Assembly: GCA_951812625.1 (NCBI GenBank)
Contig: CATOSP010000002.1
Span: 720,880 to 784,879 of the forward strand
Reading direction: 5' to 3'
From: an uncultured Dehalococcoidia bacterium
Lineage (GTDB): Bacteria; Chloroflexota; Dehalococcoidia; Lucifugimonadales; UBA3495
DNA length: 64,000 nt
Shown: in pieces, positions 10,533-61,300 of the stretch
How positions within the stretch are numbered: position 1 is the stretch's first letter
How the letters are laid out: each line of letters opens with the position of its first letter
Position numbers and translations under genes: made by a program
Notes under the pieces: generated by a model
Told to the model about the DNA's origin: nothing
The model's database searches: none
The model's input: the letters and a program-made list of their open reading frames with translations, nothing else

Positions 10533-10594
10533 CCGACTGCGGTCAAATCGGCAACGGTTGCCGAAATCGGAAACGAGTCTGAAGGGAGTCGAGC

Positions 10595-10936
10595 ATGGAA
10601 GAGACTGACTGCGGAGACCCGAAATACCTGATGTCCGGCCGTGACGTGGACTGGGTGGCGTTCTGGAGAATGGTCCAGTGGGCCGGAGTCGTGTCCGCGA
10701 TTACCGGCGTCCTGTGGGCGGGGTCGGCGCTCTTTGCTCCAGCCGTGGAACGGACGGGCCTGGAGAGGTCGTGGGTCGCCTACGGGTATCCCGTGGCCAT
10801 GATAGCCGCCTCGTGTGTGGCGGGGGCGTGCGTGGGCCGGGTCCTGGGAGTCCCGCTGGCCAGGAAGCTGGAGAATACCCGGGTCGCGTCCCCGGAGGGC
10901 GAAATGCAGGATTCAGAACAGCCCCTTACCCCGTGA
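10595..10936 (+). CDS. small membrane protein (2 predicted TM helices)
   Basis: GAAGGGAG RBS before ATG 10595. Hydrophobic helices VVSAITGVLWAGSALFAP and YPVAMIAASCVAGACVGRVLGV. Acidic C-terminus. Confidence 0.55.
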   Translation: MEETDCGDPKYLMSGRDVDWVAFWRMVQWAGVVSAITGVLWAGSALFAPAVERTGLERSWVAYGYPVAMIAASCVAGACVGRVLGVPLARKLENTRVASPEGEMQDSEQPLTP

Positions 10937-10969
10937 GGCAAGTGATTTGGCGATTTGGAGGAAAGCGAT

Positions 10970-11290
10970 ATGGAACAGATGGATGCCGGGGGAAAGACGT
11001 ACCGGATGACCGGAGACGACCTGGGTGTTTTCGCCGGGTGGCTCACCATCAACGTGCTGGCCGTGATTTTTGTGCTGGCCATCACGGTCTGGCTTGCCGA
11101 AGCCGTGTTCGGCGACCCTGAAGGCTGGAGCAGATGGTCAAGCCTTGGAGCCCTGGCCATCAGCCTGCCCCTCACGATGGCAACGGTCTGGGGCCTACAC
11201 CGTTTCTGGAAGCCGCGCTTGGCCCGCTGGCTGGACCAGCGCATGGCCCCGGAAGAAGACGACGCCAGCGAGACTTCTGAGGCCGCGTGA
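10970..11290 (+). CDS. small membrane protein (2 predicted TM helices)
   Basis: GGAGGAAAG RBS precedes ATG 10970, which I prefer over the TTG at 10955. Helices VFAGWLTINVLAVIFVLAITVWLA and LGALAISLPLTMATVWGL. Acidic tail. Confidence 0.55.
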   Translation: MEQMDAGGKTYRMTGDDLGVFAGWLTINVLAVIFVLAITVWLAEAVFGDPEGWSRWSSLGALAISLPLTMATVWGLHRFWKPRLARWLDQRMAPEEDDASETSEAA

Positions 11291-36362: not shown

Positions 36363-37691
36363 TCACCCTTTCCTTGTGGTCCGCAAAGCGGTAGGTGTTG
36401 AACCTCTCGGCAATCGTTGGATCCCTGGGCTTCTTTTCCTTGTACTGGTCCAGCACCATTCCAGCGCCGACCGGTTCCCCAGTTGGTAACGCCAGGCGTC
36501 GGGCGGAACGCCAGTTAGAGTGGTCTTGTCGTCCAGGACGATGGCTCCCCGTTCTTTGTCAGCCCGCAGGATGGTGCGGGCTGAGTCTTCGCTTCGGTCG
36601 GTGCGCTGAAGAGGGTAGGGGTCGGCTGACTCAAACCCGATGTGCAAGTCCAGAAGCTCTTGGCCCATCCGTGCCCAGGCGTTGAAATCGCGGTACAAGG
36701 GCAGGCGCGGGAACTCTCTCAACAGGTCAACGACGTAGTCCCGGCGGTAAACTGGGTCGTGGAGGACGGCGTAGGTGTAGGCGAAAATGTCGCCTGAGCC
36801 TATTCCTTCCGTAAACATGCCTTCGAACTCAGCACCCAACTCCCGGCGGTAGTGTTCGTTGATCTGCTTCATCCCCCACTCGGTGATGTTGGTGACACGT
36901 TCACCTTCCTCGGTGTAGCAGTACAGCGGTAGGCATTGAGTGTCGCCAGTGAAGTGGTAGTCAACCAGCCTATCCGAGGCTAGCACGTAGGAGTCCTTCC
37001 CGTTGACGCAGACATTGATGACCTTGTTAAGCTGTTTCAGGTCTGGACCGAAGATTTCGTAGTGGTTCCGAGTGAGGACATCGTTCATTGTAAAGTCGGC
37101 GAAATGGTGCTTCACAACAAACGGACGGAATAGTGATTGAATGCGATGTGCCTCGCTATAGGTTATGCGGCGACCACGTTGGAACTCATTACGCAAGTCA
37201 CGGCTCCACTTGATCACTGGATTATACGTCGTGTCGCCTTTGTCTAGAGCCTCGTTGTATGAGTCTGCGAAGAACAACGCTTTGTCCCTAAGAGTGTTCA
37301 CGCTGAAGTCATACACCCAATCATCGCGGTTCGATTTTGCCGCGTTTGCGAACATCCTAAACGCAGTCCCTTGTCCGCCTCCATCACCGGCAGACTTAAC
37401 CCGCCGGTTTATGAGACTCATTAACTGTCTGAAACGGAATCTCTGAGCGGACCGATTTAGCCACTCTCCAGATTCATCGGGGGCAATCCGGTCAAAGTCA
37501 ATGTCCTCTAGGATCGCCCTCCTCAGATAGGTCAGAGTTTCTGTGGCGCGTTCCGAGTCATCTCGGCTGGAATAATGAACGCGGCACTCACCTTGCTTAG
37601 ACTTATCCCTTACAAAGAAACCGATGGCGACGCCTGTCTGTATGCCGAATACATTGTGCGTGGTCCCAGAAATCTTGGGGTTGCGCCGCAC
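36363..37691 (-). CDS. type IIG R-M enzyme, C-terminal fragment (target-recognition region)
   Basis: The frame is open upstream of the listed Met back to the junction with fragment 1. GTTHNVFGIQTGVAIGFFV and the downstream region are colinear with MTase-TRD fusions of this class. It ends in out-of-frame residues after LGNRSALEW. Confidence 0.8.
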   Translation of the reverse strand: MRRNPKISGTTHNVFGIQTGVAIGFFVRDKSKQGECRVHYSSRDDSERATETLTYLRRAILEDIDFDRIAPDESGEWLNRSAQRFRFRQLMSLINRRVKSAGDGGGQGTAFRMFANAAKSNRDDWVYDFSVNTLRDKALFFADSYNEALDKGDTTYNPVIKWSRDLRNEFQRGRRITYSEAHRIQSLFRPFVVKHHFADFTMNDVLTRNHYEIFGPDLKQLNKVINVCVNGKDSYVLASDRLVDYHFTGDTQCLPLYCYTEEGERVTNITEWGMKQINEHYRRELGAEFEGMFTEGIGSGDIFAYTYAVLHDPVYRRDYVVDLLREFPRLPLYRDFNAWARMGQELLDLHIGFESADPYPLQRTDRSEDSARTILRADKERGAIVLDDKTTLTGVPPDAWRYQLGNRSALEWCWTSTRKRSPGIQRLPRGSTPTALRTTRKG

Positions 37692-37746
37692 GTCCGAACC
37701 TAGGTCGAGAATGAATATGTCCGAGAACTCCGTGGCGGCGACTTTT

Positions 37747-39351
37747 CTAAACCCATCGTCCTGTCGAGCTTCTTAGGTAGGCGCGGTTGGTAACGAAAGC
37801 GATTATCCCGTCGTCATCCAACCTGTCCGATGCCCAACGCAGGAAGCGCTTGTACATATCGTACTGGTGGGTCTTTTGGGCGTTGCTTCGGGAGATGTAT
37901 GTCTCGCGGATTCGCCTATCAATCTCCGGGTACGGACGGTTAGGGTTAAATTCGTTCCAGTTGGTCTGGCTGTCGTTGTAAGGTGGGTTGCCGATGATGA
38001 CGCTGATGGGCTTCTCGTTCTGCTCCTGGACACGGACCCAATTCTCTACGGACACTGCGCCCAGGTCCAGCGTTCCTTGCCGCTGCACCGCGCCGCCGGT
38101 GGCACCGGCCTGCTGCCAGCCCATGTTGTCCAGCGTGTCCACGAAGCACAGATTGGGGAACTCTAGGTAGCGGCCGGTCCGCTCCTTGTACGTGTACTCG
38201 ATGTTCAGGTTGGCGATGTAGTAAGGGAGGATCGCTACCTCGTTGGCGTGAATCTCATGGCGGTACTTGCGCTCCAGCCTATCCTCCGGAAGGTACTCGA
38301 TGAGGCTGGTTACGAATGTGCCCGTACCGGTGGCTGGGTCGAGAATCTGTACATGGTCGTCGGCCAAGGTGCGTCCGAAGTGCTTCCGCAGCAGATAGTC
38401 GACACCTCGGATGATGAAGTCCACCACCTCGTTGGGAGTGTAGACGACCCCGAGGCGGTCTGCGGCGGCTGGGTTGTACGCCTTATAGAAGTCCTCATAG
38501 ATCGCCTTCAGGAACTTCTGCTTTTCCGCAAAGTCAGATATGTCGTAGGCGGCTCGGCCAATTGCGCCGTAGTAGGTCAATAGCCGATCGATGGTTTCCC
38601 TGCGAGCGTCGCCGGTGAAGAAAGTCTCCTCCAGCTTGCTCAGTTGGCTGGCGATGTTGTTCTCCCTGTGGAACTGGTCCTCGCTAAACACCCGCAGGAA
38701 GATATCCTCAGTGAGGATATGCTGGAGCAGCATCTCCCGCACGTCCTCGGGGGTTACAGCGGGGCCGATACTCTGTCGGCACAGGTCGAGGAAGTCAGCG
38801 GTAGCAACCTGATAGTCCGGGTTCCGAGCCTCGGCAGTCTCCACAGTCTGACGCAGGTTCTGGAGCACTGCGGGCAGGTCTGCCTTGAACTGTTCCTGCG
38901 CTGCACGGAACTCTTCGATGTTGGGAAGTTCATAGTCCAGGAAGTGGCGGATGAGCCTGTCAAGCTCGCTAGGGCGGGTCATGTCCACCCGCATCGCCAC
39001 TTCCCGGTTCTGGACCAAGACGGCAATGCGGGAGTCCTCGAATAGAATGTTGTCCTGCGGATAACCCCTAGCGAACTTTTTCTGAATCTCGTCGTCTAGG
39101 TCGTCGTCGGTATCCTTGGCTTCCCAGTAACCCCGAGCCATACGTAGGGAGTCCTTGATCGTACCGTCGGGAACACCCCCGGGACCGGGGAGTTCCGGCA
39201 CCAGCACAAACCTCTCCCTGTGGCCTCGGCAATAGGCGTCCAGGCAAGTCTGGAAGGCCGACCTGATGTTCAACTCATTGCCTGAACCGCCGAACTCAAT
39301 GAGGCGGTTCAGGTCCTCGTAATACCGGTCAATGTGCGGGTATGTGGGCAT
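37747..39351 (-). CDS. type IIG R-M enzyme, N-terminal fragment (nuclease-like domain + N6-adenine methyltransferase)
   Basis: 534-codon ORF containing the PD-ExK-like motif, DPATGTGTF and NPPY. It terminates prematurely just after FVTNRAYLRSS because of a one-base frame change near 37765-37775. Confidence 0.85.
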   Translation of the reverse strand: MPTYPHIDRYYEDLNRLIEFGGSGNELNIRSAFQTCLDAYCRGHRERFVLVPELPGPGGVPDGTIKDSLRMARGYWEAKDTDDDLDDEIQKKFARGYPQDNILFEDSRIAVLVQNREVAMRVDMTRPSELDRLIRHFLDYELPNIEEFRAAQEQFKADLPAVLQNLRQTVETAEARNPDYQVATADFLDLCRQSIGPAVTPEDVREMLLQHILTEDIFLRVFSEDQFHRENNIASQLSKLEETFFTGDARRETIDRLLTYYGAIGRAAYDISDFAEKQKFLKAIYEDFYKAYNPAAADRLGVVYTPNEVVDFIIRGVDYLLRKHFGRTLADDHVQILDPATGTGTFVTSLIEYLPEDRLERKYRHEIHANEVAILPYYIANLNIEYTYKERTGRYLEFPNLCFVDTLDNMGWQQAGATGGAVQRQGTLDLGAVSVENWVRVQEQNEKPISVIIGNPPYNDSQTNWNEFNPNRPYPEIDRRIRETYISRSNAQKTHQYDMYKRFLRWASDRLDDDGIIAFVTNRAYLRSSTGRWV

Positions 39352-41771: not shown

Positions 41772-43305
41772 GATGCTTGTCCCCGAAGTCTGCGCGGTGA
41801 GCTACAGCCGGGTATCCAGTGACCGCCAGGACGTGGAGCTGTCGATCTCAGGTTAGCAGCGGGCAATCCGGGAGTGGTCAGAAAAGAATGGCTACACCCT
41901 GGTCGGTGAGTACGTCGATGAGGCCGAGAGTGGGCGCATCGACACCAGGGACGGGTTTTCCCAGATGATCCGCGACGCCTGCGCTCCCAACCCAGGGTTC
42001 AGGACGATCCTGGTGTGGAAGCATGACAGGTTCAGCCGCCGGAGGGAGCACGCTGTCGTCTACAAGGCCCGCCTTCGGGACCGTGGCGTCAGGCTTGTCT
42101 CGATCAGTGAGCCTTCCGACGACACCCCGAGCGGGAGACTGCTGGAGGCCATCATCGAGGGGCTGGTCGAGTATTACTCGGAGAATCTTTCAGAGGACGT
42201 TGCCAGGGGAATGCGCGAGGCCGCACTTCGCGGCAACTTCTTCGGCCCCAAGGCTCCCTTCGGTTACAGGAGGGTCAAGACCCTGGACAGTAGTGGACGT
42301 GTACGCAACACGCTGGAGGTGGTCACGGAAGAGGCCGTGACGGTCCTGTACGTGTTCCAGTGTTCACTGGAGGGTAGAGGACTCAAGGAGATCGGCAAGG
42401 ACCTTGACTCCCGTGGCATCACCAACAGGGGGAGGCGATGGCACCGCAACAGTTTGCACTGGCTCCTGACCAACGAAGCCAGCACCGGGATGCTGGTCTG
42501 GGGACGGAGGCCAACGAGGGTGAGAAACCGGGACCCAGTACGCGTCGAGGGGGCTTGGCCCGCCATCGTCTCCAGGGAGATGTTCGACCAGGTCCAGCAG
42601 TGCCTGGCAGAGCGGGCTCCGGTGAAGAGGCCTGTCAGCCAAAGGCCCGTGTTCCTGCTGACCGGGCTGCTGACCTGTGGGAGTTGCGGCAACCAGTACA
42701 TGGTCCACGCGGCCAAGAGCAACCGCTACTTCTATTACGTTTGCAGGACATTACATCACTGGGGCGCGGGGGCCTGCCAGACCAATTACTTCAACGCTCC
42801 GGTGACGGACCAGGAGTTTGTCCGCCGGTTCACTCAGAGCTTGTCAAGCACTTCCGGCCTGTCGTGGCTGGCCGACTCCGCCACTGCTGAGGTGCGCGCT
42901 GCGGCCAATGACTACTCCAGCGTTCTGGACGAAGTAAAGACCACACTGGCAGGCATCGACCAACTCCTGGAGGAGAGCCGCGAACGGTTGGAGTCCCAAT
43001 CCCTGTCCACGGCGAGTACCCTGCCCCCTCTCTCCTTCCTGCAAAGCCGCAAAGAGCAGTTGACTGCCTTGCAGAATGAAGTCTCCCGGTCAGCAAGACG
43101 AATCGACCAGATGGCCGCATCTTACGGGGCCGATGGCGAGAAATACAGCATGGACGGGATGCTCCAGGAGTTCCTGGAGCGCTTGGCTGACGGCCCGGTC
43201 CTGGAACAGCGGGAGGCCATCAAACTGCTGGTCGAGCGGATTGTGGTCGATTGCAACGGCGAGTTTGACATCCAGACCAAGGTTCCCCTCTACATCCCAC
43301 CCTGA
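41772..43305 (+). pseudogene. large serine recombinase (resolvase-type catalytic domain, recombinase domain, zinc ribbon, coiled coil), inactivated at the 5' end
   Basis: The 5' end reads MLVPEVCAVSYSRVSS (catalytic-Ser motif YSRVSSDRQ). An extra G at 41820/41821 then shifts the frame. The continuing frame (DRQDVELSISG*QRAIREW) has an in-frame TAG at 41854-41856 where the conserved Gln of the S-I-x-x-Q motif is expected. The intact remainder (ORF 41965..43305) has the zinc ribbon CGSCGNQYMVH...YYVCRTLHHWGAGAC. Confidence 0.85.
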
Positions 43306-43337
43306 CCAGCCCGGTCGTATCCAGGGTGTTTTAATTG

Positions 43338-44169
43338 TCATGGTAGTCGGAACCCGAGGAGGTTCAGGGCGGCTAATGGTTTCCGAGCGTAGTGGCGTAA
43401 AGCGACGGTTATGTTCCGTGTCCCGGTCCGGTGAAGCAGGCCGGTCACCGAGTTGCGGAAGGCGGCCATTACTTGGGGAACCGCTCCGGTTAGCACTTGG
43501 CTCCGGTCTTCTATCGAAAGTCACATCCCGCACCCAATGCAGCCGGTTTTCAATTCGCCAGTGGCCCCCCGCCACAACCTGAGCAGTCTAGCCGGCCCTG
43601 CTTCCTCCGGAGTCAAGCCGGTGATGGCATAGGCCAGTTCCACCGTCCTTGTCCCCTTGCGGATGCGAGTCCGTTCCATACAACAGACTTCCCCCAAGCA
43701 TGGCCACTCCAATCAGCCGTTCAGGGCGGACGATTCTCGCAACCGGCGCCGTTCCTGCCGGTCCCCGTGCCTTCGCCTCTGGCCGGCCTTGGAGAATTCC
43801 TCGCCCCAGGAGGTTCGGCAAAAAGCAGGGATACCGCCTCTTTCACCGTGGGTTGATTATCTTTGAGCACCCATAAATAGCTTCCTCCCTGCTCTACCAC
43901 CTGACGACTCAAATCCCGCTGTGCGTACAGAGCGTCCCCAGTCACTACTTTCCCGGTCAGGTCCAAGCGGGACAGCAGGGCCGGGGCTGCCGTCTGTTCA
44001 CTCTCCTTGCGTTGGCTCCCCACCCCCCTTTTTGACCCAGAACCAAGCCGCTGCGGTGCCCGTAGGGCGCCACCAACCTGACCCCCGGCAGTTCATCCCC
44101 ATGAATCCCCCGCGCGCTTCTGGGGTCTGGCACCTCTTCCATCCCTTCTTCGTTCACTGTCCCCTCCAC
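43338..44169 (-). pseudogene. ISAs1-family DDE transposase remnant (several frame changes and an internal deletion)
   Basis: Minus-strand fragments appear in different frames. These include N-terminal EEVPDPRSARGIH and central ESEQTAAPALLSRLDLTGKVVTGDALYAQRDLSRQVVEQGGSYLWVLKDNQP. They also include VELAYAITGLTPEEAGPARLLRLWRG, C-terminal GHWRIENRLHWVRDVTF and EDRSQVLTGAVPQVMAAFRNSVTGLL...LNLLGFRLP*, with the stop (43338-43340) inside IRL. The total length is too short for an intact transposase. Confidence 0.7.
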
Positions 44170-44429
44170 TGCGTCAACTATCGGCTATTCATTCACCACT
44201 CTCTTATCCTCTCACCACAATTAGAAGACCCTGGGTTTACGCGGATTCCAACCTATTGTCTGGAGTTCAAAGATTCCTGCCCCGAAATGTTCCAATGGCC
44301 TGCCCAGTCTTTACACTCCACACAGGACAGGTGCAGAATTAACAGCAGAAGCACAACCAGCCCGGTCCAAAAAGACGCTGTAAGTCTCTGGCGTAGGACT
44401 TTCAAGAATTGAATTACGGAAGGGATGAC

Positions 44430-47400
44430 ATGAGACTCGACGGAGCAGGATCAGTCATTGCCATCGCACTGTTGAGCGTAACGCTGGTGACACTGGTCGC
44501 CAGCCTGGTCTTGACTTCCGAAACCCTAGCGGCGGGACATGCGCCGGATGTTTCGGTTACCCATGCAACCTCAGGCGCGACGGTACAGGTGAGAATTGAC
44601 TCTCCGGTGCCCTTGAGGGCCTCATTCAGCGAACCGGTCTTCGGGTTCGAAGTGAATGACATCACGGTGGTCAACGGCTCTGCCAGCGACTTTGCCGGTA
44701 GTGATGGCGACTCCGTCTATACCTTCAGTGTTACTCCGAACGCGGTCGGGACGGTGAGGGTTGATGTTGCCGCCGGAGTTGCCGAAGACGCCGACAGCAA
44801 TGGCAACACTGCGGCCGCTAGTTTCTACCTGGGTCTACCCTACGACGACGACCACGACGGCAAGATCGGTCGCCCAGAGGTCATTGAGGCGGTGGTGGAC
44901 TATTTCTCGGGGCATGTCACGAGGGATCATGTGATTGATCTGATCATACGCTACTTCAATGGGACCGCATCCCCCTCCGACCTAGTCGTCGGGATACCGT
45001 CGGTCAGTGACAGCAACCCGGCGGCGGGCGCCCCATTCACGCTGAGTGCTATGGTCGAGAATACTGGGGACGGGGAGTCGGAGGCAACGACGCTCCGTTA
45101 CTACCGGTCGACGGACGCGACGATCGATGGGTCGGACACGGAGGAGGGCACGGACGAGGTCGACGCGCTCGCGGCGGCGGGCGAGAGCACCCAATCAATT
45201 GATCTGACCGCGCCGTCGACACCCGGCGCCTACTACTACGGCGCGTGCGTAGACTCGGTGGCGGATGAGTCCGACACGACAAACAACTGTTCGGCGCCGG
45301 TGAAAGTGGATGTACAGGGTCTGGCGCCCAACCTACAAGTGGAGACGCCGTCGGTGAACGACGCGATCCCGGCTCCAAGTGGATCGTTTACGCTGTCGGC
45401 CACGGTGATCAACACGGGCAATGGAGCGTCGGTTTCCACGACGCTGCGTTACTATCGCTCCACCGATTCCACCATATCCACCGGCGATACGCAGGTGGGT
45501 ACAGACTCTATCGGCGCGCTCGCGGCTGCTGGCACGAGTGCGGAGTCGATCAATCTGACCGCGCCATCGACGGCGGGAACATACTACTACGGCTCGTGCG
45601 TGGACGCGGTGACCGACGAGTCCGACACGACAAACAACTGCTCGTCGTCGGTTAAGGTGGATGTGCTGGAAGTGCAGCAGCAGTCACAGGGCCAACCCGA
45701 TTTACATGTGGGTCCGCCGTCGGTGAGCGACAACTCCCCGACCGCGGGGGCGACATTCACGCTGTCAGCCACGGTGACCAATGCGGGCGACGGAGCGTCT
45801 GCGGCCACGACGCTCCGTTACTACCGCTCTACGGACTCAACGATCTCGACATCGGACACGCAGGCGGGAACGGATGCGGTTGGGGCGCTGGCGGCGTCCG
45901 GCACGAGCCCGGAATCGATCTCGCTGACCGCGCCGTCGACACCCGGCGCCTACTACTACGGCGCGTGCGTGGACTCGGTTACGGACGAGTCCGACACCAA
46001 CAACAACTGCTCGTCGTCTGTGACGGTCACGGTCGAGCCGCAGAGCAGCCCGGACCTGGTGGTGAGCAAGCCGGGTAGCGCTATGAATGTGAGGCCGGGG
46101 ACGACCTTCACCCTGTCGCCGACGGTGACGAACATCGGCGACGCGGAATCGTCTGCGACGACCCTGCGCTACTACAGCCGCTACTCCGGCAGGGAGGAGT
46201 ACGGGCAGGCCCCTATGGGGCAGGACACGGAGGTGGGTACCGACGCAATCGGCCCGCTGGCGCCGGGTGGCCAGAGTGACCAGTCCATAGAGTTGACCGC
46301 GCCTGTGACACTCGGCGACTACAATGGTGCCTACTACTACGGCGCTTGCGTGGACAAGGTGGCGGGCGAGCCCGCCACGACGAACAACTGCTCGAATCGC
46401 GTAGAGGTCTGGGTTCGGTTCCGGCCGGACCTGACGGTGTCGGTTTCGGCGCCTGCGAGGGTGAGTCCTGGGGCGTGGTTCCGTTTGTGGGCGACGATAA
46501 CCAACGAGGGCGACGCGGACGCCAGGAAATCTCCCAGGATACCGGTCCGCTACTATCAGTCGACCGACGCGACGATCACGACTTCGGATACGGACCTGTC
46601 AGGAGTGATTAGCTTCGGCACAGAACTCGCTGCCGGGAGTTCCAACACCGATGACTCCGGTGAGTACTTAAGAGCGTCTTCGACACCCGGCACTTACTAC
46701 TTCGGGGCGTGCGTAGGCACGGTGGCGAACGAATGGAGCACGACGAACAACTGCTCGGAGGCCGTGGAGGTGACGGTCAAGGGGTATCCAGACCTGGATA
46801 TCCTGGGTGGGAGCGGGTACACTCCTCCCCTTGTGCCAAGTGGGTCGTTCTACCTGACAGCGCGCCTGGAGAACGAGGGTGATGGCGAAGCCGCGGCCAC
46901 AACCCTCCGAGCCTACCGGTCCACGGATACTACTATCACGACATCTGACACGGAGCTGGCCACAAAGGAAATCGAGGCACACGCGCCTGGAGACATCACC
47001 CACCACCGGATCAACCTGACTGCGCCGGATACAGCCGGCACGTACTACTACGGCTCGTGTGTGGACGCGGTGACGGATGAGTCGGACACGACCAACAACT
47101 GTACGTTCGCTACAACGCTGGTAGTGCCGGTGCCCGCTCCGGACCTGACTGTGTGGGCCAAGCTGAGCAGAGTCCATAGCATTCTGGCCCCGGGAACACC
47201 CGTCACCCTATCGGCGACGGTGTTCAACGTGGGCGCCGAGGATACGGAGGCGACGACGCTCCGATACTACCGGTCGGATGACGGCCAGACGATCTCGAGT
47301 TCGGACACAGAGTTGGGCACCGAGTCGGTCGGCGCACTCGAAAGCGCCAATAATAGCGAGCATTCGATCGATATTACCGCTCCATTGAAGCCCGGCGACT

Positions 47401-48185
47401 ACGACTACGGCGCTTGTGTGGACACGGTTACGGGTGAGTTGGTCACCGATAACAACTGCTCGACGGGCAGGTGGATGAGGGTGACGGCGCCCGACCTGGA
47501 AGTGGGAACGCCGTCAGTGGATGACGCAAGCCCGGCCACGGGGGGGACCTTCACGCTGTCGGCCACGGTGACCAACACGGGTTACAGGGAGTCTGCGGAG
47601 ACGACGCTCCGCTACTACCGGTCTACGGACGCAACGGTCTCGACTTCGGACACGGGAGTGGGCACGGATTCGGTAGGCGCGCTCGACTGGTCCGACACCA
47701 GCGGCCAGTCAATCAATCTGACCGCGCCTGCGACGGCGAGGACGTACTACTACGGTGCGTGCGTGGACACGGTGACGTATGAGTACTACACGACTGACAA
47801 CTGCTCGTCGCCGGTGAAGGTGGATGTGGGGAATCCCACGCCCGATCTGGAGGTGGGGACGCCGTCCGTGAACAACGCGACCCTGGGGACGGAGGCGGCG
47901 TTTACCTTGTCTGCCACGGTGACCAATTCCGGCAACGGGGAGTCCCCCGGGACGACGCTGCGTTATTACCGGTCCACGGATGCGACGATCACGAGCGCGG
48001 ACACTGCGGTTGGCACCGACGCCGTGGGTATCCTCGTGCCGGCGGGCACCAGCGGCCAGTCAATCGATCTGACCGCGCCATCGACGGCGGGAACGTACTA
48101 CTACGGGGCGTGCATCGACTCGGTGACGGATGAGTCCGACACGACGGACAACTGTTCCGCATCGGTGCAGGTCGCGGTGACATAG
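44430..48185 (+). CDS. secreted/anchored protein with nine CARDB-like modules, an N-terminal Ig-like domain and an EF-hand/dockerin-like motif (passenger of the ISAs1 element)
   Basis: GGAAGGGA RBS before ATG 44430 (TTG 44409 is an alternative). Signal anchor VIAIALLSVTLVTLVASLVL. Nine ~115-aa modules of the form PDL.V..P.V.........FTLSATV.N.G...S..TTLRYYRSTD.TI...DT..GTD.V..L...G.S..SI.LTAP...G.YYYGACVD.V..ESDT.NNCS. The motif YDDDHDGKIGRPEVIEAVVDYFSG lies at 44841-44964. Confidence 0.85.
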   Translation: MRLDGAGSVIAIALLSVTLVTLVASLVLTSETLAAGHAPDVSVTHATSGATVQVRIDSPVPLRASFSEPVFGFEVNDITVVNGSASDFAGSDGDSVYTFSVTPNAVGTVRVDVAAGVAEDADSNGNTAAASFYLGLPYDDDHDGKIGRPEVIEAVVDYFSGHVTRDHVIDLIIRYFNGTASPSDLVVGIPSVSDSNPAAGAPFTLSAMVENTGDGESEATTLRYYRSTDATIDGSDTEEGTDEVDALAAAGESTQSIDLTAPSTPGAYYYGACVDSVADESDTTNNCSAPVKVDVQGLAPNLQVETPSVNDAIPAPSGSFTLSATVINTGNGASVSTTLRYYRSTDSTISTGDTQVGTDSIGALAAAGTSAESINLTAPSTAGTYYYGSCVDAVTDESDTTNNCSSSVKVDVLEVQQQSQGQPDLHVGPPSVSDNSPTAGATFTLSATVTNAGDGASAATTLRYYRSTDSTISTSDTQAGTDAVGALAASGTSPESISLTAPSTPGAYYYGACVDSVTDESDTNNNCSSSVTVTVEPQSSPDLVVSKPGSAMNVRPGTTFTLSPTVTNIGDAESSATTLRYYSRYSGREEYGQAPMGQDTEVGTDAIGPLAPGGQSDQSIELTAPVTLGDYNGAYYYGACVDKVAGEPATTNNCSNRVEVWVRFRPDLTVSVSAPARVSPGAWFRLWATITNEGDADARKSPRIPVRYYQSTDATITTSDTDLSGVISFGTELAAGSSNTDDSGEYLRASSTPGTYYFGACVGTVANEWSTTNNCSEAVEVTVKGYPDLDILGGSGYTPPLVPSGSFYLTARLENEGDGEAAATTLRAYRSTDTTITTSDTELATKEIEAHAPGDITHHRINLTAPDTAGTYYYGSCVDAVTDESDTTNNCTFATTLVVPVPAPDLTVWAKLSRVHSILAPGTPVTLSATVFNVGAEDTEATTLRYYRSDDGQTISSSDTELGTESVGALESANNSEHSIDITAPLKPGDYDYGACVDTVTGELVTDNNCSTGRWMRVTAPDLEVGTPSVDDASPATGGTFTLSATVTNTGYRESAETTLRYYRSTDATVSTSDTGVGTDSVGALDWSDTSGQSINLTAPATARTYYYGACVDTVTYEYYTTDNCSSPVKVDVGNPTPDLEVGTPSVNNATLGTEAAFTLSATVTNSGNGESPGTTLRYYRSTDATITSADTAVGTDAVGILVPAGTSGQSIDLTAPSTAGTYYYGACIDSVTDESDTTDNCSASVQVAVT

Positions 48186-48641
48186 CAGTCCGACATTGTT
48201 GCATTGACGGGTAAACCGGGAGTCCTTTCGTGGTGAGCTTGTCGAACCATGGGTGGACTGGGCTGATGATCCGGGACAATCAAAATCCCCTGCGGTCGTA
48301 TCCCGTTGCTGATGCTACCCGTGACGCTCGTGGTATGCTTCATGGGGAGCCCCAACTCAAAGCTCAGGAGGGTTTAGACCTCTACCATAACTCACCAGGA
48401 CCGCGAGTCTCCCTGCACTGCACAGTCCACTTTATGTAAATTCCCCAAGTTCGCCCCAATGTATGGTCGCCTGGCAGTAGATCAGAGTGAGAATCCCTAT
48501 ATGCCCAGTTTCGGGAAGCGCCCCTAGTAATCGGTCGAGTTCGAAAACAAAATTAGGAAATGGGTTAACTCGAGAGTCTCAATATGGTTGCAGCTTAGCC
48601 TCCCAGGCACACCCTTCTTTTGCAGACTTGACTGGGCACTA

Positions 48642-49860
48642 GTACTGGATCAAGTCAGGAATTAATGGGATAGAGGCGATTGAGTTTAGTTCGGGCGTCC
48701 TGGATGCCGAAGTGCCAGTTGACTCGGACTTGAGCCCGGTTTCTCTCTTGTTCCAGGGCGTGAATCTCCCTGCAGAGGGACTCCTCATCGGGGATGCGCT
48801 TTTTGAGGCAGCCGCGGGAGAAGACACTGAATTCGATCTCCGCCATATTGAGCCAGCTGCCATGCTTGGGGGTGTAGTGGAACTCCAGTCGCCGCGCCAT
48901 GCGCCGGGCCTCCTCCGCCGGAAAGGCCTGGTACAAAGACGCCTTGCGATGGGTATTGAGATTGTCCAATACCACCCGGACCACCGGCACATCGGGGTAG
49001 GCCTCGTCCACCAGCCAGCGCATCTGGTGAGCGAAGTCCACCGCGGTGCGCCGCTCCGTGACCGCCACATGCCGCCAGCCCGCCAGGGGCTCGATGCAAA
49101 GGAACAGGTTGCGGGTGCCCTCGCGCCGGTACTCGTAGTCCTCACGCTTGGGACGTCCCGGTTCTACCGGGATGGGCGGCCGGGCGTCGGACAGCAACTG
49201 GGTGGAGGTCTCGTCGAAGCAGACCACCGGCCTCTGGGGGTCGTAGGGTTCGGCGTAGAGGTCCAGGACATCCTCCATGGCCGCCACGAAGTCGGCGCTC
49301 ACCTCGGGAATGCACCACTGTTTCTTCCGCCACGGCTTGATTGTATTTTTTTCAAGTGCAGCCGCACCGTCTCGTACGACAGGGACTCAACCACCCCCAG
49401 TTCAACCATCCGGTCTGCCAGCAGGCGCAGGTTCCAGTGGTCGTGGCCCTCCGGGGCCGGACTGCAGGCCAAGGCAATCAGGCGGCCCTCGGCCCGGTCA
49501 TCCATCTTGCGGTACCGGTGGGCCTGGGGCCGGTCCTTGAGCACACCGTCCAGCCCGCCCTCGGCAAAGCGCCGCTTGACGTTGAACACCGTTCCCTGGG
49601 CCACGTCCAAGGCTTGGGCCACCTTGGGTGCCGACCAGCCCTCGTCGGTCTTCAGCAGGATGCGGGCCCGGTTGATAACTCTGGCGGAACCCTTTCCCGC
49701 CCGGATCATATGCTCCAGTTGGTTGCGCTCCTCCGGCGTCAACTGGACCGCAAACTTCTCCCTGACCACACCACCACCTCGCAACAGCACCTATTGCCAG
49801 CAGATTAGCACTGCCACCCGGTCCCCGGCTACAACTTCAAGACCAAGTTTGATTGAGTAC
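48642..49860 (-). mobile_element. IS630-family insertion sequence (1219 bp) flanked by TA
   Basis: Terminal inverted repeats are gtactggatcaa (48642...) and ttgattgagtac (...49860). TA lies immediately outside both ends (48640-48641 and 49861-49862). It encodes an IS630-type transposase. Confidence 0.8.
48655..49790 (-). CDS. IS630-family transposase (two overlapping frames joined by a -1 shift at an A7 run)
   Basis: OrfA (49299..49790) has a HTH region and ends ...RLHLKK. At the A7 run (T7 on the plus strand, 49346-49352) a -1 shift gives LKKNTIKPWRKKQWCIPEVSADFVAAMEDVLDLY..., continuous with OrfB (48655..49302, DDE region). The total length of 1136 nt equals 3n-1. Confidence 0.85.
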
Positions 49861-49907
49861 TAGGTCGACTCATGAGCGGCCCCTAATTCCCCACGAAGGA
49901 CAGGATA

Positions 49908-50411: not shown

Positions 50412-50517
50412 CGGCGGCGTGTTCGGGAATGCGTTCCGTTCAATCTGATTCAGTTTCGGCTCAAGGCAATATCGCCCCCACAACTACTCCGACTCGGGTC
50501 CCGCTAGCCTGTTAGGT

Positions 50518-50952
50518 CTGGCCGACTCCGCCACTGCTGAGGTGAGAGTTGCGGCCGGTCCCTACGCCAGCGTTCTGGACGAGGTGAAGACCACACTGGC
50601 GGGCATGGACCAGAGCCTGGGGGTGAGCCGCGAGACCGTGGAGTCCCATCCACACTCCTGGTGCCCCTTTTGCCCCGTATCTTCTTCCTGAGAAGCCGCA
50701 GGGAGCAGTTGGCGGCCTTGCAGAATGAGGTCCATCGCTCCTTTAGGATAGTCGACCAGATAGCCGCCCAATACGGGTTGGATGGCGGGAAACACAGCAT
50801 AGCCACGATGCTCCAGGAGTTCCGGGATGGCCTCGTTGATAGCCCGGTCCCTGATAAGCGAGACATCATCAAGCTGTTGGTCGAGCGGATTGTGGTCGAT
50901 TGCAGCGGCGAGTTTGACATCCAGACCAGAGTTCCCCTCTACATCCCACCCT
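50518..50952 (+). pseudogene. truncated second copy of the serine-recombinase 3' end
   Basis: Colinear at DNA level with 42868..43305, by eye roughly four-fifths identical. Identical blocks include ctggccgactccgccactgctgaggtg and ctggtcgagcggattgtggtcgattgca, and the encoded tail is KLLVERIVVDCSGEFDIQTRVPLYIPP. It lacks all upstream domains, and the stop TGA is changed to TGG. Confidence 0.75.
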
Positions 50953-51256
50953 GGCCAGGCTCGGTCGTGCCCTTCGCCAATGCTGCCCGTGACGATCGTG
51001 GTATGCTTAATGGGTAGCCCCCAAACTCGAAGCTCAGGAGGGTTTGAAGCTCTACCAAACTCATCTGCCTCCGAGTTCTTACATGCTCTGCACTGCCCAC
51101 CATCCTTGCGCAGTTCGATCGACAGAAGTCTGTTGGTCTCTAAATCCGTCGGTGGTTCGTGCCGGGGCACCACACCATGCGGCAAGAGTGACCGCCAAGG
51201 CATACTTAACTTTCGGAGAACGCAAGAACTCTTCATCTCGATGAAAGGGAGTTGAC

Positions 51257-55066: not shown

Positions 55067-55264
55067 CCTGCTCTAGGGTCAGGAACCGGAGACCGGCAAT
55101 TGAGGTGCAGCATGTCGTAGGTATGTGGGATCTGGGTGTCTCAGGTGGCCGGGTGTGTCGTTTTCGTTAGCTGTGAGTTTGGAGTACACTGGCCGTCGAC
55201 ATTCTGCAAGTTAGCACGGGACACACGATCCCTCCCATCGTGCCGGGGAGACTGGAGCCTGACA

Positions 55265-58237
55265 ATGAAGCTGTTACCTTGCCGCGTTCCATTGCGATTT
55301 GCAGCTGCAATAGGATCTCTTGCTCTAGTGATTGGCCTGGCGGTAGTGGCCAATTCTGCCTACGCCCAAAGCGGGGGCCAGTGTGCTACCGGAGCGGCAG
55401 TAACGGAAGCAGTCAACAATCCGGGTCTGGTTTCAGACTGCGAAGTATTGCTGGCGGCCCAGGACAACCTCTCCGGTGGTGCCGGGTTGAACTGGTCGCT
55501 CGGCGTTCCCATTGACGAATGGGACGGCATCACCGTTAGTGAGGCTGCGGAGGACACCGTTGATGGCGAACCGCAGCGTGTCATTGAGCTAGAACTCGGT
55601 GCCAAAGGGCTGTCGGGAGAAATACCCCCGGAACTCTCCAACCTCGAAAACTTGCAATCGCTCGACCTGAGCAATAACGATTTCACTGGTTCGATCCCGG
55701 ACTGGCTCCCCACCCTTTCCATTCTGCGACAACTGGACCTGCGTGGTAACGACCTCTCAGGCGCAATCCCGGCTTGGATCGGAAGCATGACCCACTTGTC
55801 AGACCTCCACCTCGAAAATAACCGGTTGACAGGCGAGATCCCGTCTGAGATCGGCCACTTGGTCAACTTGCTGCACTTCCACCTGGACAACAACCAACTG
55901 ACCGGTCAGATACCCCCTGAACTGGGTAAGCTTCGGAGGCTTTTGGGGTTCGATTTCAGCGATAACAGGTTGACCGGCGAACTACCGCCGGAACTGGCCA
56001 ACCTGACCCGCCTGTACAGGATGGACCTTCGCAGAAACCAGTTGACCGGTCCTATTCCTTCCTGGGTCGGCGACCTCCGTGGGCTGCATGACCTGCACCT
56101 GGAGGATAACCTCTTTACCGGCACGATCCCCACTGAGATCGGTAACATACCTCACTTGACGGACTTCCATCTGGACAACAACCAGTTGACCGGCGAAATA
56201 CCAGGCGAAATAGGCAATCTGACTAGGCTGATAGGGTTCGACTTCAGCGATAACCAGTTGACCGGCGACATTCCGGCCGAGGTGCGGAATCTGACCCGGT
56301 TAGTCCGGGTGGACCTCAGTAGTAACCGGCTGACCGGCGGTATACCCGCACAACTGGGCGACCTTCCTAGGCTGCGTGATGTCCACCTGGACAACAACGA
56401 GCTGACCGGCCCAATTCCACCGTCCCTCGGCAACGCCGCCACTCTGCAACATCTGAAGCTTAACGGCAACAGGTTGACCGGAGAGATACCGCCGGACTTG
56501 GGCAAGCTGACCGGGCTGGTGGTCCTGCATCTCGAGGACAACCGACTGACCGGTGAGATACCGGCAGAACTGGCTAACCTCGCCGACCTGGAAGAACTAT
56601 ACCTGTCCGAGAACCGGTTGGCCGGTCAGGTCCCGTCGTCGCTTGGGGACTTGGGAAACCTCCTGCATCTCTACCTCGAGGATAATCTGCTGACCGGGGA
56701 GATACCGTCGGAGCTCGGCGGACTGACCAACCTTCAACACCTTTATCTCTCCAGGAACCAGCTAGGCGGCGAGATTCCACCGGAACTCGGCAGACTGACC
56801 AACCTGCAACACCTGTACATCGCGGGAAACCGGCTGACCGGGCGTATACCAACGCAACTGGGTCGCCTTACCAACCTGCAGCGCATACACCTTAACCACA
56901 ACCAGTTGACCGGATGGATACCGACGCAGCTAGGGAACCTGCTTAACCTGCGGGACCTGATTCTTTGGGACAACAGCCTGTCCGGAGAAATTCCGGTGGA
57001 ACTGGCCCGCCTCCGGGAGTTGCGTCGACTGCACCTTGACCAAAACCAGTTGTCTGGGCCCATACCACCACAGTTGGGTTACCTCTTCAACCTGCGAGAC
57101 CTGTATCTTTGGGACAACCAGTTGACCGGTCAGATACCTCCCGATCTGGGCAATCTTGCCGAGCTGCGATTCCTACACCTGGACCGTAACGAGTTGACAG
57201 GAACTATACCACCGCAACTCGAGAACCTGACTAGCCTGCTCGAACTGTACCTCTCCCGAAACGAACTCATCGGGTGCATTCCCCAAGGCTTGCGGGACAT
57301 CGGTATCAATGACTTGCACCGTGTCGGTCTGCCCTTCTGCGATGTAGTCTTGAGTTCACTGACCGTAACACCGGGATCGCTGAACCCTCCCTTCGATCCG
57401 TTTGAGACCGGCTACACCGTGGATGTGTACCAGCCGCGAATCACCGTGATCCCGACGAACGCTCACGGGGCTAGAATCGAGTTCCTAGACGCGGGCTATG
57501 GCCCGGTCTCGGACATCGACGACTCGCTGGACGGCCTACAGATTGACGTGATGGCCAACATCACAGTGATCAAGTTTGCCGTTACCTCCCAGGATGAAGA
57601 GGCGGCCCATGCATACGTCCTAGACGTCAGGCGACCGGACTTGAACACCGCCCCTGCGTTCTTCGACGGAGAGGGCAATGCGATCACGGATACCGAGAGG
57701 AGCGTGGCCGAGAACACTCCTGCTCGCCGGAGAATAGGCGAACCAGTCGCAGCCACCGATGCTGAAGACGACTCCCTGACCTATACCCTGAACGGTACGG
57801 ATGCCGAGGCCTTCAGCATCGTCCCGTCAACAGGCCAACTGGTTACGAAAGCGCCCCTCAACTATGAGACAAAGGCCGAATACACGGTTGAGGTCTCGGT
57901 GCAAGACCCTTTCGATATCGGCACGACAATCACGGTGACTATCCTGGTGACCGATGTGACCACCGGTAGCGCAGTGGGCGACCGGTATGACTTAGACGAG
58001 AACGGGGTTATCGACAGGGAAGAGGTTATCGCGGCCATAACCGACTACTTCGACGGCCTTCTGACCAGGGAAGAAGTCATAACCATTATCAGCCTGTACT
58101 TCTTGGGGGCATCTTCGAACAGTGACGCTACAGGCACAAATGATGCCGCCGCGGCCGCTGAGACCACCAAGGCGGACGGTGCCGATAAGACAGGAAAAAG
58201 GTCTGAGGACATAGTGGTCAAGCACCGGAAGCGGTGA
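55265..58237 (+). CDS. secreted plant-type leucine-rich-repeat protein (~23 LRRs) with cadherin-like modules and an EF-hand/dockerin-like C-terminal motif
   Basis: ATG 55265 follows GGAG, and there is a signal peptide (LRFAAAIGSLALVIGLAVVANSAYAQ). About 23 consecutive 24-aa repeats fit LxxLxxLxLxxNxLTGxIPxxLGx. These are followed by LSSLTVTPGSLNPPFDPFETGYTV (cadherin-like beta-sandwich type) and one cadherin repeat (VAENTPARRRIGEPVAATDAEDDSLTYTLNGTDAEAFSI). The protein ends with YDLDENGVIDREEVIAAITDYFDG. Confidence 0.9.
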   Translation: MKLLPCRVPLRFAAAIGSLALVIGLAVVANSAYAQSGGQCATGAAVTEAVNNPGLVSDCEVLLAAQDNLSGGAGLNWSLGVPIDEWDGITVSEAAEDTVDGEPQRVIELELGAKGLSGEIPPELSNLENLQSLDLSNNDFTGSIPDWLPTLSILRQLDLRGNDLSGAIPAWIGSMTHLSDLHLENNRLTGEIPSEIGHLVNLLHFHLDNNQLTGQIPPELGKLRRLLGFDFSDNRLTGELPPELANLTRLYRMDLRRNQLTGPIPSWVGDLRGLHDLHLEDNLFTGTIPTEIGNIPHLTDFHLDNNQLTGEIPGEIGNLTRLIGFDFSDNQLTGDIPAEVRNLTRLVRVDLSSNRLTGGIPAQLGDLPRLRDVHLDNNELTGPIPPSLGNAATLQHLKLNGNRLTGEIPPDLGKLTGLVVLHLEDNRLTGEIPAELANLADLEELYLSENRLAGQVPSSLGDLGNLLHLYLEDNLLTGEIPSELGGLTNLQHLYLSRNQLGGEIPPELGRLTNLQHLYIAGNRLTGRIPTQLGRLTNLQRIHLNHNQLTGWIPTQLGNLLNLRDLILWDNSLSGEIPVELARLRELRRLHLDQNQLSGPIPPQLGYLFNLRDLYLWDNQLTGQIPPDLGNLAELRFLHLDRNELTGTIPPQLENLTSLLELYLSRNELIGCIPQGLRDIGINDLHRVGLPFCDVVLSSLTVTPGSLNPPFDPFETGYTVDVYQPRITVIPTNAHGARIEFLDAGYGPVSDIDDSLDGLQIDVMANITVIKFAVTSQDEEAAHAYVLDVRRPDLNTAPAFFDGEGNAITDTERSVAENTPARRRIGEPVAATDAEDDSLTYTLNGTDAEAFSIVPSTGQLVTKAPLNYETKAEYTVEVSVQDPFDIGTTITVTILVTDVTTGSAVGDRYDLDENGVIDREEVIAAITDYFDGLLTREEVITIISLYFLGASSNSDATGTNDAAAAAETTKADGADKTGKRSEDIVVKHRKR

Positions 58238-58391: not shown

Positions 58392-61300
58392 TTACGGTTC
58401 CACGGGTTGGGGCCACCGCCGCCGGTAGTCACCAAGGAGAAAGATCAGCAGCAGCGCGAGAGCTGCAAGGACCGCAGTGGCTACATAGTGGGGAATCCAC
58501 GTGCCCCGGTTCTCTGAAAGGAGTGGGGCCGGAGCTGTCGTGACAACCTCCGTTCCCTCGCTAGCCTCGGCCTCGGATGCCGGAGTTTGTGTCGGCTGTG
58601 GGTCAGACCCGTCGTCCAGGGACATCCCTTGTCCGAAAGCAGGTGTTGGGAAAGGAACCGACGCTGACACAACACTTGTGGCTTTGATGATGCACTTAGG
58701 CGTGCTCGCGCCGGACTTCGACCGAGATTCCTGCAAGTTAGCCACCTGCTGGCACGATTCCTCCTCTGGCGTCGGCTGCACAGAGACCACCGGGGACTGG
58801 CAGGACTCAGTGTCCGGGCTCGTCTGCTCAGTGGCAATCGGCAACGGGCACGCTTCCTCCTCCGGGGACGACGGGTCCTGGGGCGGTAGGTCCGGGACCA
58901 CCAGCAACTGGCATGATTCCATCCCCGGAAGCGGCAGGTCCGAAATCACTAGGAGCCGACACGGCATCCTCTCTGGAAGCGGCAGGTCCGGAAGCCACGA
59001 CCGCCAGGCGACATTGGTCGCTGTGATTCCTGTGTTCGTCTCCCTGACCTCGGTTATACTGGAGTCCTCAGTCGAGTCCGGTAACGTCATGGCGTAATCG
59101 CCGAAGTGGGTCATGGTTGATACGGCCCAAACGTTGCCGTCATTGTCGGTCTCGCAGCGGCGTTCCAGCACGTTCCAGGTCTCCCCATCCACGCGGTATA
59201 CCTTCGCGCCGCCGCTCTCGCATTCGGATTTCTGGTCTTCCGTCAGACGCATCCAAATCTCCGCGTCGGGAGAGTAATTCGTCGGCTGGGGATTCTCTCC
59301 GCTATCGCTGGGGCTGTCCACCTCCCCCGCCAGTACAACGCCTTCCTGGTCCGGAGGGGACGAACCGGGGTCATCGTCTTCCAGCCTCTCAACTTCAACA
59401 TCAATGATGCCGGAAGCAGAGTCAGGCTGTATGACCACCCGGATCATACCGTCGTCCGTCTCTATGATCGTGGGCAGATCGTCTGAGTCTTCGTCGGAAT
59501 CGTCACTCGTGACCGGCTCAGTCACAGTCAAGCTCACTGAGATCTCTTGGGGAGAGTTGCTGGCCGTACTGCCGCTGACCTCGATCGTTGCAGTATAGGA
59601 TCCAACTTCAAGACCGGATATGTCAGCTGAGACTCTGATCAGCTTCTTATTCGCGGGGCCGTTGGAAGCGCCCGAAACAGGGGACAGGGACAGCCAGTCC
59701 TCATCCCCGGACACTTCGAAGTCCATTCCACCAATTTCCCTGTTCCAGACTGCCATCCACAGGTCTGCAGGGTTCTCGCCGTCTTTGGCGGCCGAGAATG
59801 ACAGGGTCCCCGGACGCAACCCAAGCGCCGGAGTGTTTAGTGAAGGAAGCGGAACGGCCCCGCCGCCTCCACCGTAGAAACCACCACCACCACCTCCTGC
59901 GGCTTTATTGTCGACTACGGGAGTCTGCGGAACTAGCGGTGGGCCCACCCTGCTGTCGACTGAACTGCCGGTGCTCCCACTTCCAGGTTCCGACCAGGAA
60001 CCACTCCCTTCGTCGTTCGTGGCCTGGACCTGCACATCGTGTTCAGTGCTGGGGTTCAGCCCACTGATCTGCGCGCTCGTGCCGGTGACGCCCTGTGGTC
60101 CATTGGTCCATGATCCACTGGTCCCTTCCCGGTACTGCAAGTTGTAGCCGGTAATGTCCGGACCGGTGTTGGTAGGCGCACTCCAGGACACTGACAGGGT
60201 GTTATGGCCGTTGGTGGGTGCTGAGGTTACTGTAGGTGCATCGGGCTTGCCCGGCGGTTCGTTCACATCCGTAACCGTGATGGTAACAGTGATGGTGTCG
60301 GAAGCGCTTGCCGTGTCCGTCGCGGTCACCGTCACCGTGTAGGTGTCCTTGGCCTCAAAGTCCAGGGCAGCACCGGTCTGCAACTGTCCTGACGATGCAA
60401 CTATCCCGAAGGACGCAGCATCTGTTCCGCCCAGGGTATACGTGAGGCTGTCCCCGTTGTCCGGGTCATTCGCCGCAACCGGAGCGCCAATGTTCCGGCC
60501 CGATGGCGTGTTCTCCCCAACCTCCCTGGTCTGGTCGCCCTGTATGCCGGGAGTGTTAGGGTCCTGATCAGGGAACGCAGGGTCTGTGTTCACCGCCACG
60601 ATATTGACGGAGACCGCCTGAGCGCTCTTGCCTGAAGCGAACTTGTCAGTGTAGGACACTGTCGCCCGCAGGTAATTGCCCACATCGGCAGCAACCGGGG
60701 TATATGTGGCGGAGGTCGCGCTTATGGGCGTCCAGGTATTCTTATTCGAAGAACTCTCCCACACCCATGTGACACCTGTGACGGGAACATCAGGCTCATC
60801 AAGCGTGGCAGTAAACGGGGCTCCAACCCGAGGCCATTCAGAGGACAGAGTGACGACCCCTGCTTCGTCCAGGTCGTTTACAGAGATGGTAACCGTTATT
60901 GTGGCCGAGGCGTCTGATTGGTCCGTGGCAGTAACCGTCACCGTGTACGAATTCTTGGTCTCGTAGTCCAGGGCGGCTTTGGTCTGCAACTGGCCTGACG
61001 TTGTCACGAATGCAAACGAAGCGGCATCAGTCCCGCCCAGGGAGTAGGTCAACACGTCGGACGTGTCCTGGTCGGTGGCCGCCACCGGATCGCCTATGTC
61101 AACCCCCGCTGACGTGTTCTCATCCACCGTTCTTGTCTGTGCGGTCTGGACGCCGGGTGTGTTGGAGTCCTGGTCCGGGAACTCAGGCGTCCTGTTGGGT
61201 TGCTTCACCGCATTGGCCGAGACAGCGTTCGCGCTCTTGCCGGAACCGAGCCTGTCAGTATAGGCCGCCGTCGCCCGCAGGAACTTGTCCACGTCACCAG

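Follow-up and report, generated by a model that had tools for sequence, protein, structure and literature searches.

A 4971-bp insert at positions 43322 to 48292 of a 64-kb stretch of DNA from an uncultured Dehalococcoidia bacterium (GenBank assembly GCA_951812625.1, contig CATOSP010000002.1; the whole stretch is hereafter the window) is probably a transposition unit driven by an insertion sequence (IS), comprising a decayed ISAs1-family IS, the genomic DNA adjoining it and a solitary IS-type end on the far side, all moved in one event. On the minus strand, the proposed unit would run from the solo distal inverted repeat (IR), termed R (48292 to 48271), through 4059 bp of genomic DNA carrying a gene for a protein with a Big_12 and nine CARDB domains, to the left IR (IRL) of the IS itself, termed M (44233 to 44212), and along the IS body to its right IR (IRR), termed L (43343 to 43322). 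An earlier interpretation made from the letters alone (the sequence-only reading) had described the insert as a single ISAs1-type element three to four times the normal size, a transporter IS whose passenger was the CARDB gene. The family, the intact outer ends, the 10-bp duplication and the paralogous empty site that it reported were all borne out, whereas its single-element classification was not.

The outer ends, 43322-43343 (CAGGGTGTTTTAATTGTCATGG) and the reverse complement of 48271-48292 (CAGGGGATTTTGATTGTCCCGG), are inverted, of the CAGGG type and identical at 17 of 22 positions. Directly outside them lie two copies of CGGTCGTATC (43312-43321 and 48293-48302), the only exact copies in the window. 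The left copy begins 7 nt past the stop codon (43303-43305) of a serine recombinase open reading frame (ORF), placing the unit 16 nt downstream of that stop. Significance was assessed in simulated first-order-Markov windows, counting CAGGG...CCCTG pairs no more than 10 kb apart. A 17/22 IR alone is weak evidence, with 0.34 pairs per simulated window reaching that score; IRs of at least 15/22 combined with flanks identical at 8 or more of 10 positions occurred only 0.005 times per simulated window. The flanks of the real pair match at 10/10, and an analytic estimate built on the simulation puts such identity on top of the IR at approximately 5e-7 per window.

The uninterrupted target is preserved in the same window. 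When the empty site (CCAGCCCGGTCGTATCCCGTTGC) was reconstructed by joining 41900-43321 to 48303-49300 and aligned to the window, it matched a paralogous segment at 79.5% identity over 565 nt (50507-51063), rising to 87% over 199 nt at the junction. This paralog (50867-51063, + strand), consisting of the recombinase 3' end and approximately 92 nt downstream, is collinear through the junction and holds the target once. A recombinase-based search of metagenome contigs for orthologous empty sites found no relatives. Because the simulation statistics and the paralogous empty site agree, the insertion of the 4971 bp with one repeat copy is genuine, and so is the target-site duplication. The contig probably derives from a long-read metagenome assembly, where chimeras could arise, and 17/22 matches between CAGGG-anchored sites are not rare. 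Nevertheless, a chance resemblance or a chimera would have to account for the flank identity, the clean empty site, the agreement of all three ends with a family profile from other genomes and the intact 3.75-kb ORF running through the segment, and we consider either very improbable.

The left part of the insert reads as a normal-sized IS. Across four independent short contigs (L007-L010), identity was 96% over 44113-43322 and 92% over 44233-44132, and five long-read contigs (L002-L006) were 92.7% identical. Homology to all independent copies ended at 43322 and 44233, and the sequences outside these points differed between contigs. Since homology stops exactly there, the IS proper was delimited as 43322-44233 (- strand), an ISAs1-family element decayed to 912 bp from a canonical length of 1221 bp. 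The canonical element is bounded by IRL CAGGGTCTTTTAATTGTGGTGA and IRR CAGGGTGTTTTAATTGTCATGG, the latter identical to the left outer end of the unit. A pattern search with the terminal consensus recovered a third site inside the insert, at 44216-44233 on the minus strand (CAGGGTCTTCTAATTGTG), belonging to the IRL of the window copy (M, 44212-44233, CAGGGTCTTCTAATTGTGGTGA), an end that had escaped the sequence-only reading. M matches the left end at 17/22, the same similarity as the distal end R shows, and sits 64 bp upstream of the start codon of the remnant transposase. This is the position expected of a left IR, as the transposase remnants all lie on the minus strand between 44169 and 43338.

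It is this internal end that separates the insert from a true transporter IS, in which a single ISAs1 element would have only L and R as its ends and the CARDB gene as an internal passenger. The outer ends and the duplication would suit such an element equally well. However, at least four independent 1221-bp copies end at M, which fits the family profile better than R does, and over 747 nt part of the cargo shares 90.5% identity with an ordinary chromosomal region free of IS ends (locus L091). We therefore find the transporter reading highly implausible, and the internal IR shifts the class from transporter IS to a module of IS plus surrogate end. The passenger of the sequence-only reading stands as an intact gene with the domains described, but it lies outside the IS proper.

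To compare the three ends, a position weight matrix was built from 25 distinct duplication-validated ends, which themselves score 13.4 to 34.3 bits. L scored 29.7, M 25.6 and R 18.4 bits, and the runner-up among the window's 325 CAGGG sites reached 10.9 bits (median -14.7). R (48271-48292, - strand) retains every position that is invariant among the validated ends (1-5, 10 and 17). In M, position 10 is C, whereas all 25 validated ends share T there; the difference may have weakened the left end of the IS itself, or it may be later decay. Separately, a weak IR-like match within a 2551-aa ORF (CAGGGGAGTTTCAATGTC, 23328-23345, - strand, 10.9 bits) has neither partner nor duplication and is probably due to chance.

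The duplication brackets the outer pair only. No target duplication was present at the two IRs of the IS itself, the flanks GGTTTACGCG at M and CGGTCGTATC at L being unlike, and a search for inverted or direct repeats bounding 44234-48270 found none (best score 19; shuffled sequences averaged 14.8 and reached 22 at most). Because the duplication surrounds L and R, M has none and the segment between M and R lacks bounding repeats, pairing of L with R is favoured. In the proposed history, an ISAs1-family DDE transposase, supplied by the window copy before its decay or by another copy in trans, would have paired the right IR of the IS with the distal solo R rather than with its own left IR. Everything between L and R would then have been excised or copied and inserted into CGGTCGTATC just downstream of the serine-recombinase (pseudo)gene, with duplication of 10 bp; subsequently the transposase gene would have decayed while the cargo ORF was kept intact. 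The single-event move, and the action of the transposase in cis or in trans, are what we infer from this arrangement.

An alternative two-step origin would have a plain IS insert and duplicate its target, with the CARDB segment and a second left end placed inside later. In its favour, the region is a hotspot for IS, one of the IS630 family lying approximately 340 bp to the right, and nested insertions occur in relatives, including a 2062-bp unit in locus L013. Yet this origin demands that a crossover or insertion fell precisely on the inner border of the 22-bp IR and left a complete second IRL in canonical register, and the inserted segment lacks a bounding duplication or repeat. Moreover, similarity between R and the IS is confined to the 22 nt of R, with nothing further inward. 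On this evidence a two-step origin appears quite unlikely. Likewise, the unit could descend from a compound transposon in which two full ISAs1-family copies flanked the CARDB gene and the right copy was later deleted to its outermost 22 bp. The distal positions of R (C at 18, GG at 21-22) do resemble those of right IRs in the family, and the left IS shows that deletions happen in these elements. The deletion, however, would have to take out a whole 1.2-kb IS together with its inner IR while sparing precisely the 22 bp of the outer IR, and no transposase-like remnant occurs in 48186-48270. R also differs from the ends of the left copy at 5 of 22 positions and so does not stem from a sister copy. 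We regard a compound ancestor as unlikely.

Several observations weigh against the IS-driven unit as proposed. R has GA at positions 6-7 in place of the usual TC (A7 in 0 of 25 and G6 in 1 of 25 validated ends), exactly equals no known IS end, and as a 20-mer had no match in the genome and metagenome contig collections; hence it is not the end of a catalogued multi-copy element in those collections. The sequence-only reading had proposed looking for further copies of the whole unit, and none turned up in the searched genome and metagenome collections. The 90%-identity cluster of the cargo consists of one member on one contig (2.28 Mb), with no second gene copy at 90% or above. As the unit, R and the cargo (at or above 90%) were each found once only, mobility of the whole unit rests on one insertion. 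A single move remains the most likely reading of the ends, the duplication and the empty site, though one based on a single case. Among 55 IS-sized copies in related loci, a scan for alternative ends with a matching duplication yielded no other clean case; it recovered the window as a positive control and a trivial 290-bp case in L087, and it missed a candidate unit in L036 whose imperfect repeat falls outside the criteria. Within the part of the source genome that was read, namely the 64-kb window, no donor site and no intact copy of the transposase came to light.

As to the origin of R, an end left over from a diverged family member or from a miniature inverted-repeat transposable element (MITE) is more likely a priori than a fortuitous look-alike, given that spare ends are common in these genomes and that approximately 0.002 fortuitous matches would be expected within 5 kb. 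No inner IR that would make R part of a MITE was found within 48000-48292. One arm of a palindromic repeat (GTGAGCTTGTCGAACC, 48233-48248) lies in the 107-bp tail that separates R from the CARDB stop, and R occupies the place of the second arm, a hint of an old breakpoint at R. Both arms of the palindromic repeat (GTGAGCYTGTCGAACC ... TTCGACAAGCTCAGG) are present in L022 (14702-14812, partly tandem-multiplied) and in L052 (9488-9658), whereas the window has one arm, at 48225-48249. When the tail and the spacer were compared with 90 related loci, only this short arm gave a match.

The transposase pseudogene (43338-44169, - strand) comprises an orfA remnant and orfB. Intact relatives encode two overlapping ORFs rather than one, orfA of 151 aa and orfB of 240 aa. 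In the window copy, deletions of approximately 33 and 279 bp removed most of orfA, with the junction near 44103-44136 and the larger deletion bounded by two CGGGGGATTC repeats. Four small indels (+1 A at 44029-44033, -1 C at 43808/9, +2 G at 43569-70 and +1 A at 43512) shift the frame, and TAC has become TGA at 43715-43713 in orfB. With two deletions, four frameshifts and one stop, the gene is dead. Assembly noise is an unlikely source of these lesions; all seven, within a 0.9-kb IS, were taken as real because the adjoining 3.75-kb ORF is unbroken. Mere homopolymer errors of long-read sequencing were considered for the frameshifts and rejected on the strength of the 279-bp deletion, the TGA stop, the non-homopolymer +1 insertion and that same intact ORF.

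Stitched across its lesions, the pseudo-protein scored 148.1 bits on NCBIfam NF033564 (transpos_ISAs1; cut-off 70) over model positions 99-313, in agreement with the ISAs1 affiliation first suggested by the sequence-only reading. P0122, the closest intact relative, scored 142 bits on the same model, and orfA of L008 spans model positions 1-115. The stitched translation has hundreds of relatives, the best being P0121 (93% identical) and P0122 (89%). The clade is no more than approximately 50% identical in protein to the ISAs1 transposases listed for annotated plasmids, and is thus divergent.

A degenerate-pattern scan of GTDB genomes, derived from an alignment of 15 homologues, returned 80 loci, nearly all from Dehalococcoidia metagenome-assembled genomes. 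Across these loci and the contigs encoding P0121 and P0122, approximately 30 IS copies of 1.18 to 1.32 kb carry perfect or one-mismatch duplications at their ends, mostly of 10 bp and some of 9 bp. The 10-bp duplication of the window is therefore the footprint expected of this transposase.

MITE-like derivatives of 124 to 240 bp with ISAs1-type CAGGG ends were present in L085 (8732-8865), L036 (10800-11039 and 11051-11181), L050 (7337-7460) and L066 (7315-7457), the 134-bp MITE of L085 having a perfect 10-bp duplication, CCGCCGGGAC. In L036, CCGGAAGACC and CCGGGAAGACC enclose an IS (7492-8723), approximately 2 kb with three minus-strand ORFs and the 240-bp MITE (10800-11039), and the inner end of the IS lacks a duplication. 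A second composite or cargo unit at 7492-11181 is plausible, with the reservation that the two repeat copies do not match perfectly and another MITE lies directly alongside. A third near-copy of the bracketing sequence follows that second MITE, suggesting repeated insertion into the same target, and one of the three ORFs has a metalloprotease-like motif (HELGxxxxLxH). An oversized IS can also arise by nesting, as in L013 (6677-8738): the ISAs1 copy there reaches 2062 bp solely because a two-ORF IS5-like element is nested inside it, and its 10-bp duplication (TCTATTGTGT) is perfect.

The transposase of this clade is split into orfA (PF13808) and orfB (PF01609) in nearly all Dehalococcoidia copies (L002-L012, L025-L048). 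The frame of orfB is +1 throughout, and the overlap contains a conserved AAAAGGGGGG run (A4G6), for example at IS position 513 in L002 (5519-6739); the window copy has A5G6 at 44024-44033. The split and the A4G6 run are kept across subgroups 62 to 70% identical in protein, in Illumina and long-read assemblies, and a Chloroflexia relative (L064) has a single, motif-free ORF of 421 aa. The split at A4G6 may represent programmed recoding.

The cargo gene (44430-48185, + strand) is an intact ORF of 1251 aa, encoding an N-terminal hydrophobic signal or anchor, the Big_12 domain, an Asp-rich stretch resembling a calcium site and the nine CARDB repeats, spaced at 345 to 381 nt. Its 5' non-coding region (44234-44429, + strand; GC content 50% over 44234-44408) contains one promoter-like site (44310-44339) and a Shine-Dalgarno-like GGAAGGG motif just before the ATG at 44430; an alternative TTG start lies at 44409. 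The 3' tail covers 48186-48270. The protein is presumably expressed and useful. Exact-sequence look-ups of the cargo protein, with either candidate start, and of the recombinase gave no recorded match.

The cargo looks like ordinary lineage-native DNA rather than IS-specific sequence, a judgement based on a chromosomal relative, a large lineage family and a GC content like that of the window (62.7% versus 62.1%). In this lineage the family is very large and gave thousands of matches. The chromosomal relative, L091, aligns from 9922 to 10777 with 44351-45097, that is, with 79 nt of leader, the N-terminal module and the first CARDB repeat. This homology begins 79 nt before the ATG, short of the IS junction, and no IS ends are nearby in L091, where the gene lies in a chromosomal cluster of PKD, LRR and cadherin surface proteins. 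The L091 counterpart is a 258-aa gene (87% protein identity) that departs after a conserved ATTLR motif and soon ends, upstream of an HNH_3 gene; either this copy has lost its end or the CARDB array is built of exchangeable modules. P0085, the closest full-length relative (73% identity), has the repeat region in common and not the flanks, and with only repeats shared it is uninformative on context.

Around the unit, the large serine recombinase ORF (41965-43305) matches the Resolvase profile only from position 58, so it appears to lack the N-terminus with the catalytic serine. The second recombinase fragment (50507-50955) comprises the last approximately 450 nt only and, together with downstream sequence to 51063, is 79.5% identical. 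Both pieces look like remnants in a rearranged, IS-rich region. The IS630-family element (48635-49792, - strand) consists of orfA (49790-49299; HTH_32/HTH_23) and orfB (49302-48655; DDE_3), overlain by a 383-aa plus-strand ORF (48712-49863) that is probably spurious antisense. Its terminal repeats were looked for and could not be defined, and it recurs at 74 to 84% nucleotide identity in the Dehalococcoidia loci L053, L040, L037, L057, L055, L021 and L085 (three matches). Genes of the flexible region around the unit (2948-7378, 55136-58237, 58392-63896 on the minus strand, 21501-29156 and 36363-39351 on the minus strand) encode giant cadherin/Big_9/fn3 and LRR surface proteins as well as a helicase-methylase protein of 2551 aa. 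They also include a Type ISP restriction-modification enzyme divided between two ORFs (N6_Mtase plus coupler; Type_ISP_C specificity domain).

The window thus offers a clean case in which an ISAs1-family element would have captured and moved a complete 3.8-kb cell-surface gene, with the empty-site control in the same window. It also illustrates that outer repeats alone can mislead calls of oversized IS. For the Dehalococcoidia, whose genomes hold many giant surface proteins, it provides one concrete mechanism of gene relocation. The kind of event, mobile DNA carrying host genes, is known and occurs here in an IS family for which the literature searched does not describe it; as the principle is familiar from IS1380-family modules and compound transposons, no new mechanistic question is opened. 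A broader conjecture, which we hold as doubtful, is that the Dehalococcoidia ISAs1 clade, rich in MITEs and relic ends, routinely shuttles large surface-protein genes by pairing an IS end with any nearby spare end of the family, and that the A4G6 split is a form of recoding control undescribed in ISAs1. If true, IS-driven modules would be a significant route for reshuffling the very large repertoires of CARDB, cadherin and LRR surface proteins in these organisms.

Among known systems, ISEcp1-type units pair one end of the IS with a distant, surrogate IR-like sequence, typically a weak look-alike, and the target duplication forms round the whole. The window unit differs from ISEcp1: the DNA it captured is on the far side of the left IR, upstream of the transposase gene and divergent from it, with the right IR retained, and its surrogate R is a good family-type IR (17/22, 18.4 bits). 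In transposable modules (TMos), defined in the IS1380 family, one IS copy mobilises an adjoining DNA segment (PMC3281130). Like the window unit, TMos and ISEcp1 units (ISPme1, IS1247a, ISEcp1) join a single IS to neighbouring DNA and a distal IR-like end, the duplication enclosing the whole and being absent at the internal IS end. They belong to the IS1380 family, whereas the window transposase is of the ISAs1 family, so the likeness is one of mechanism and not of family.

Compound transposons (Tn10, Tn5, Tn9) share with the window unit inverted IS-type outer ends round genomic DNA and a single duplication, but they need two IS copies, each with its own transposase gene and two IRs. The unit has one IS body, its other arm being a bare 22-bp IR. 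In MITE-assisted mobilisation, an IS and a MITE, or a pair of MITEs, flank the genes that are moved, as in integron mobilisation units. There too a spare family end supplies the second terminus, and family MITEs exist in related genomes, possibly acting in this way in L036; the MITE in such systems is two-ended, however, whereas the spare end of the window is a single IR.

ISAs1 elements are usually described as simple, single-ORF IS. The intact relatives of the window clade have in common with the canonical family (ISAs1, IS1358, H-repeat elements, ISArsp11) an NF033564 transposase, CAGGG termini, duplications of 9 to 10 bp and a length of approximately 1.2 to 1.3 kb; they differ in the orfA/orfB split with its +1 frame and A4G6 run, and the window copy is in addition internally deleted and dead. 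A full-text literature search, incomplete in coverage and hence weak evidence of novelty, found no description of an ISAs1-driven cargo unit. The ISAs1 member ISArsp11 (1306 bp, CAGGG ends, 10-bp direct repeat) has 0 passenger genes, and the transporter IS of the same report, ISArsp9, ISArsp12 and ISArsp14, hold their passengers between only two IRs (PMC6305408). As in the window, the passenger of a transporter IS lies between the outermost IRs and direct repeats surround the whole. Unlike the window unit, with its canonical IRL at that point, transporter IS have no internal IR between transposase module and passenger. Taken together, these comparisons suggest that the window unit resembles a transposable module or a one-armed composite transposon, and not a transporter IS.

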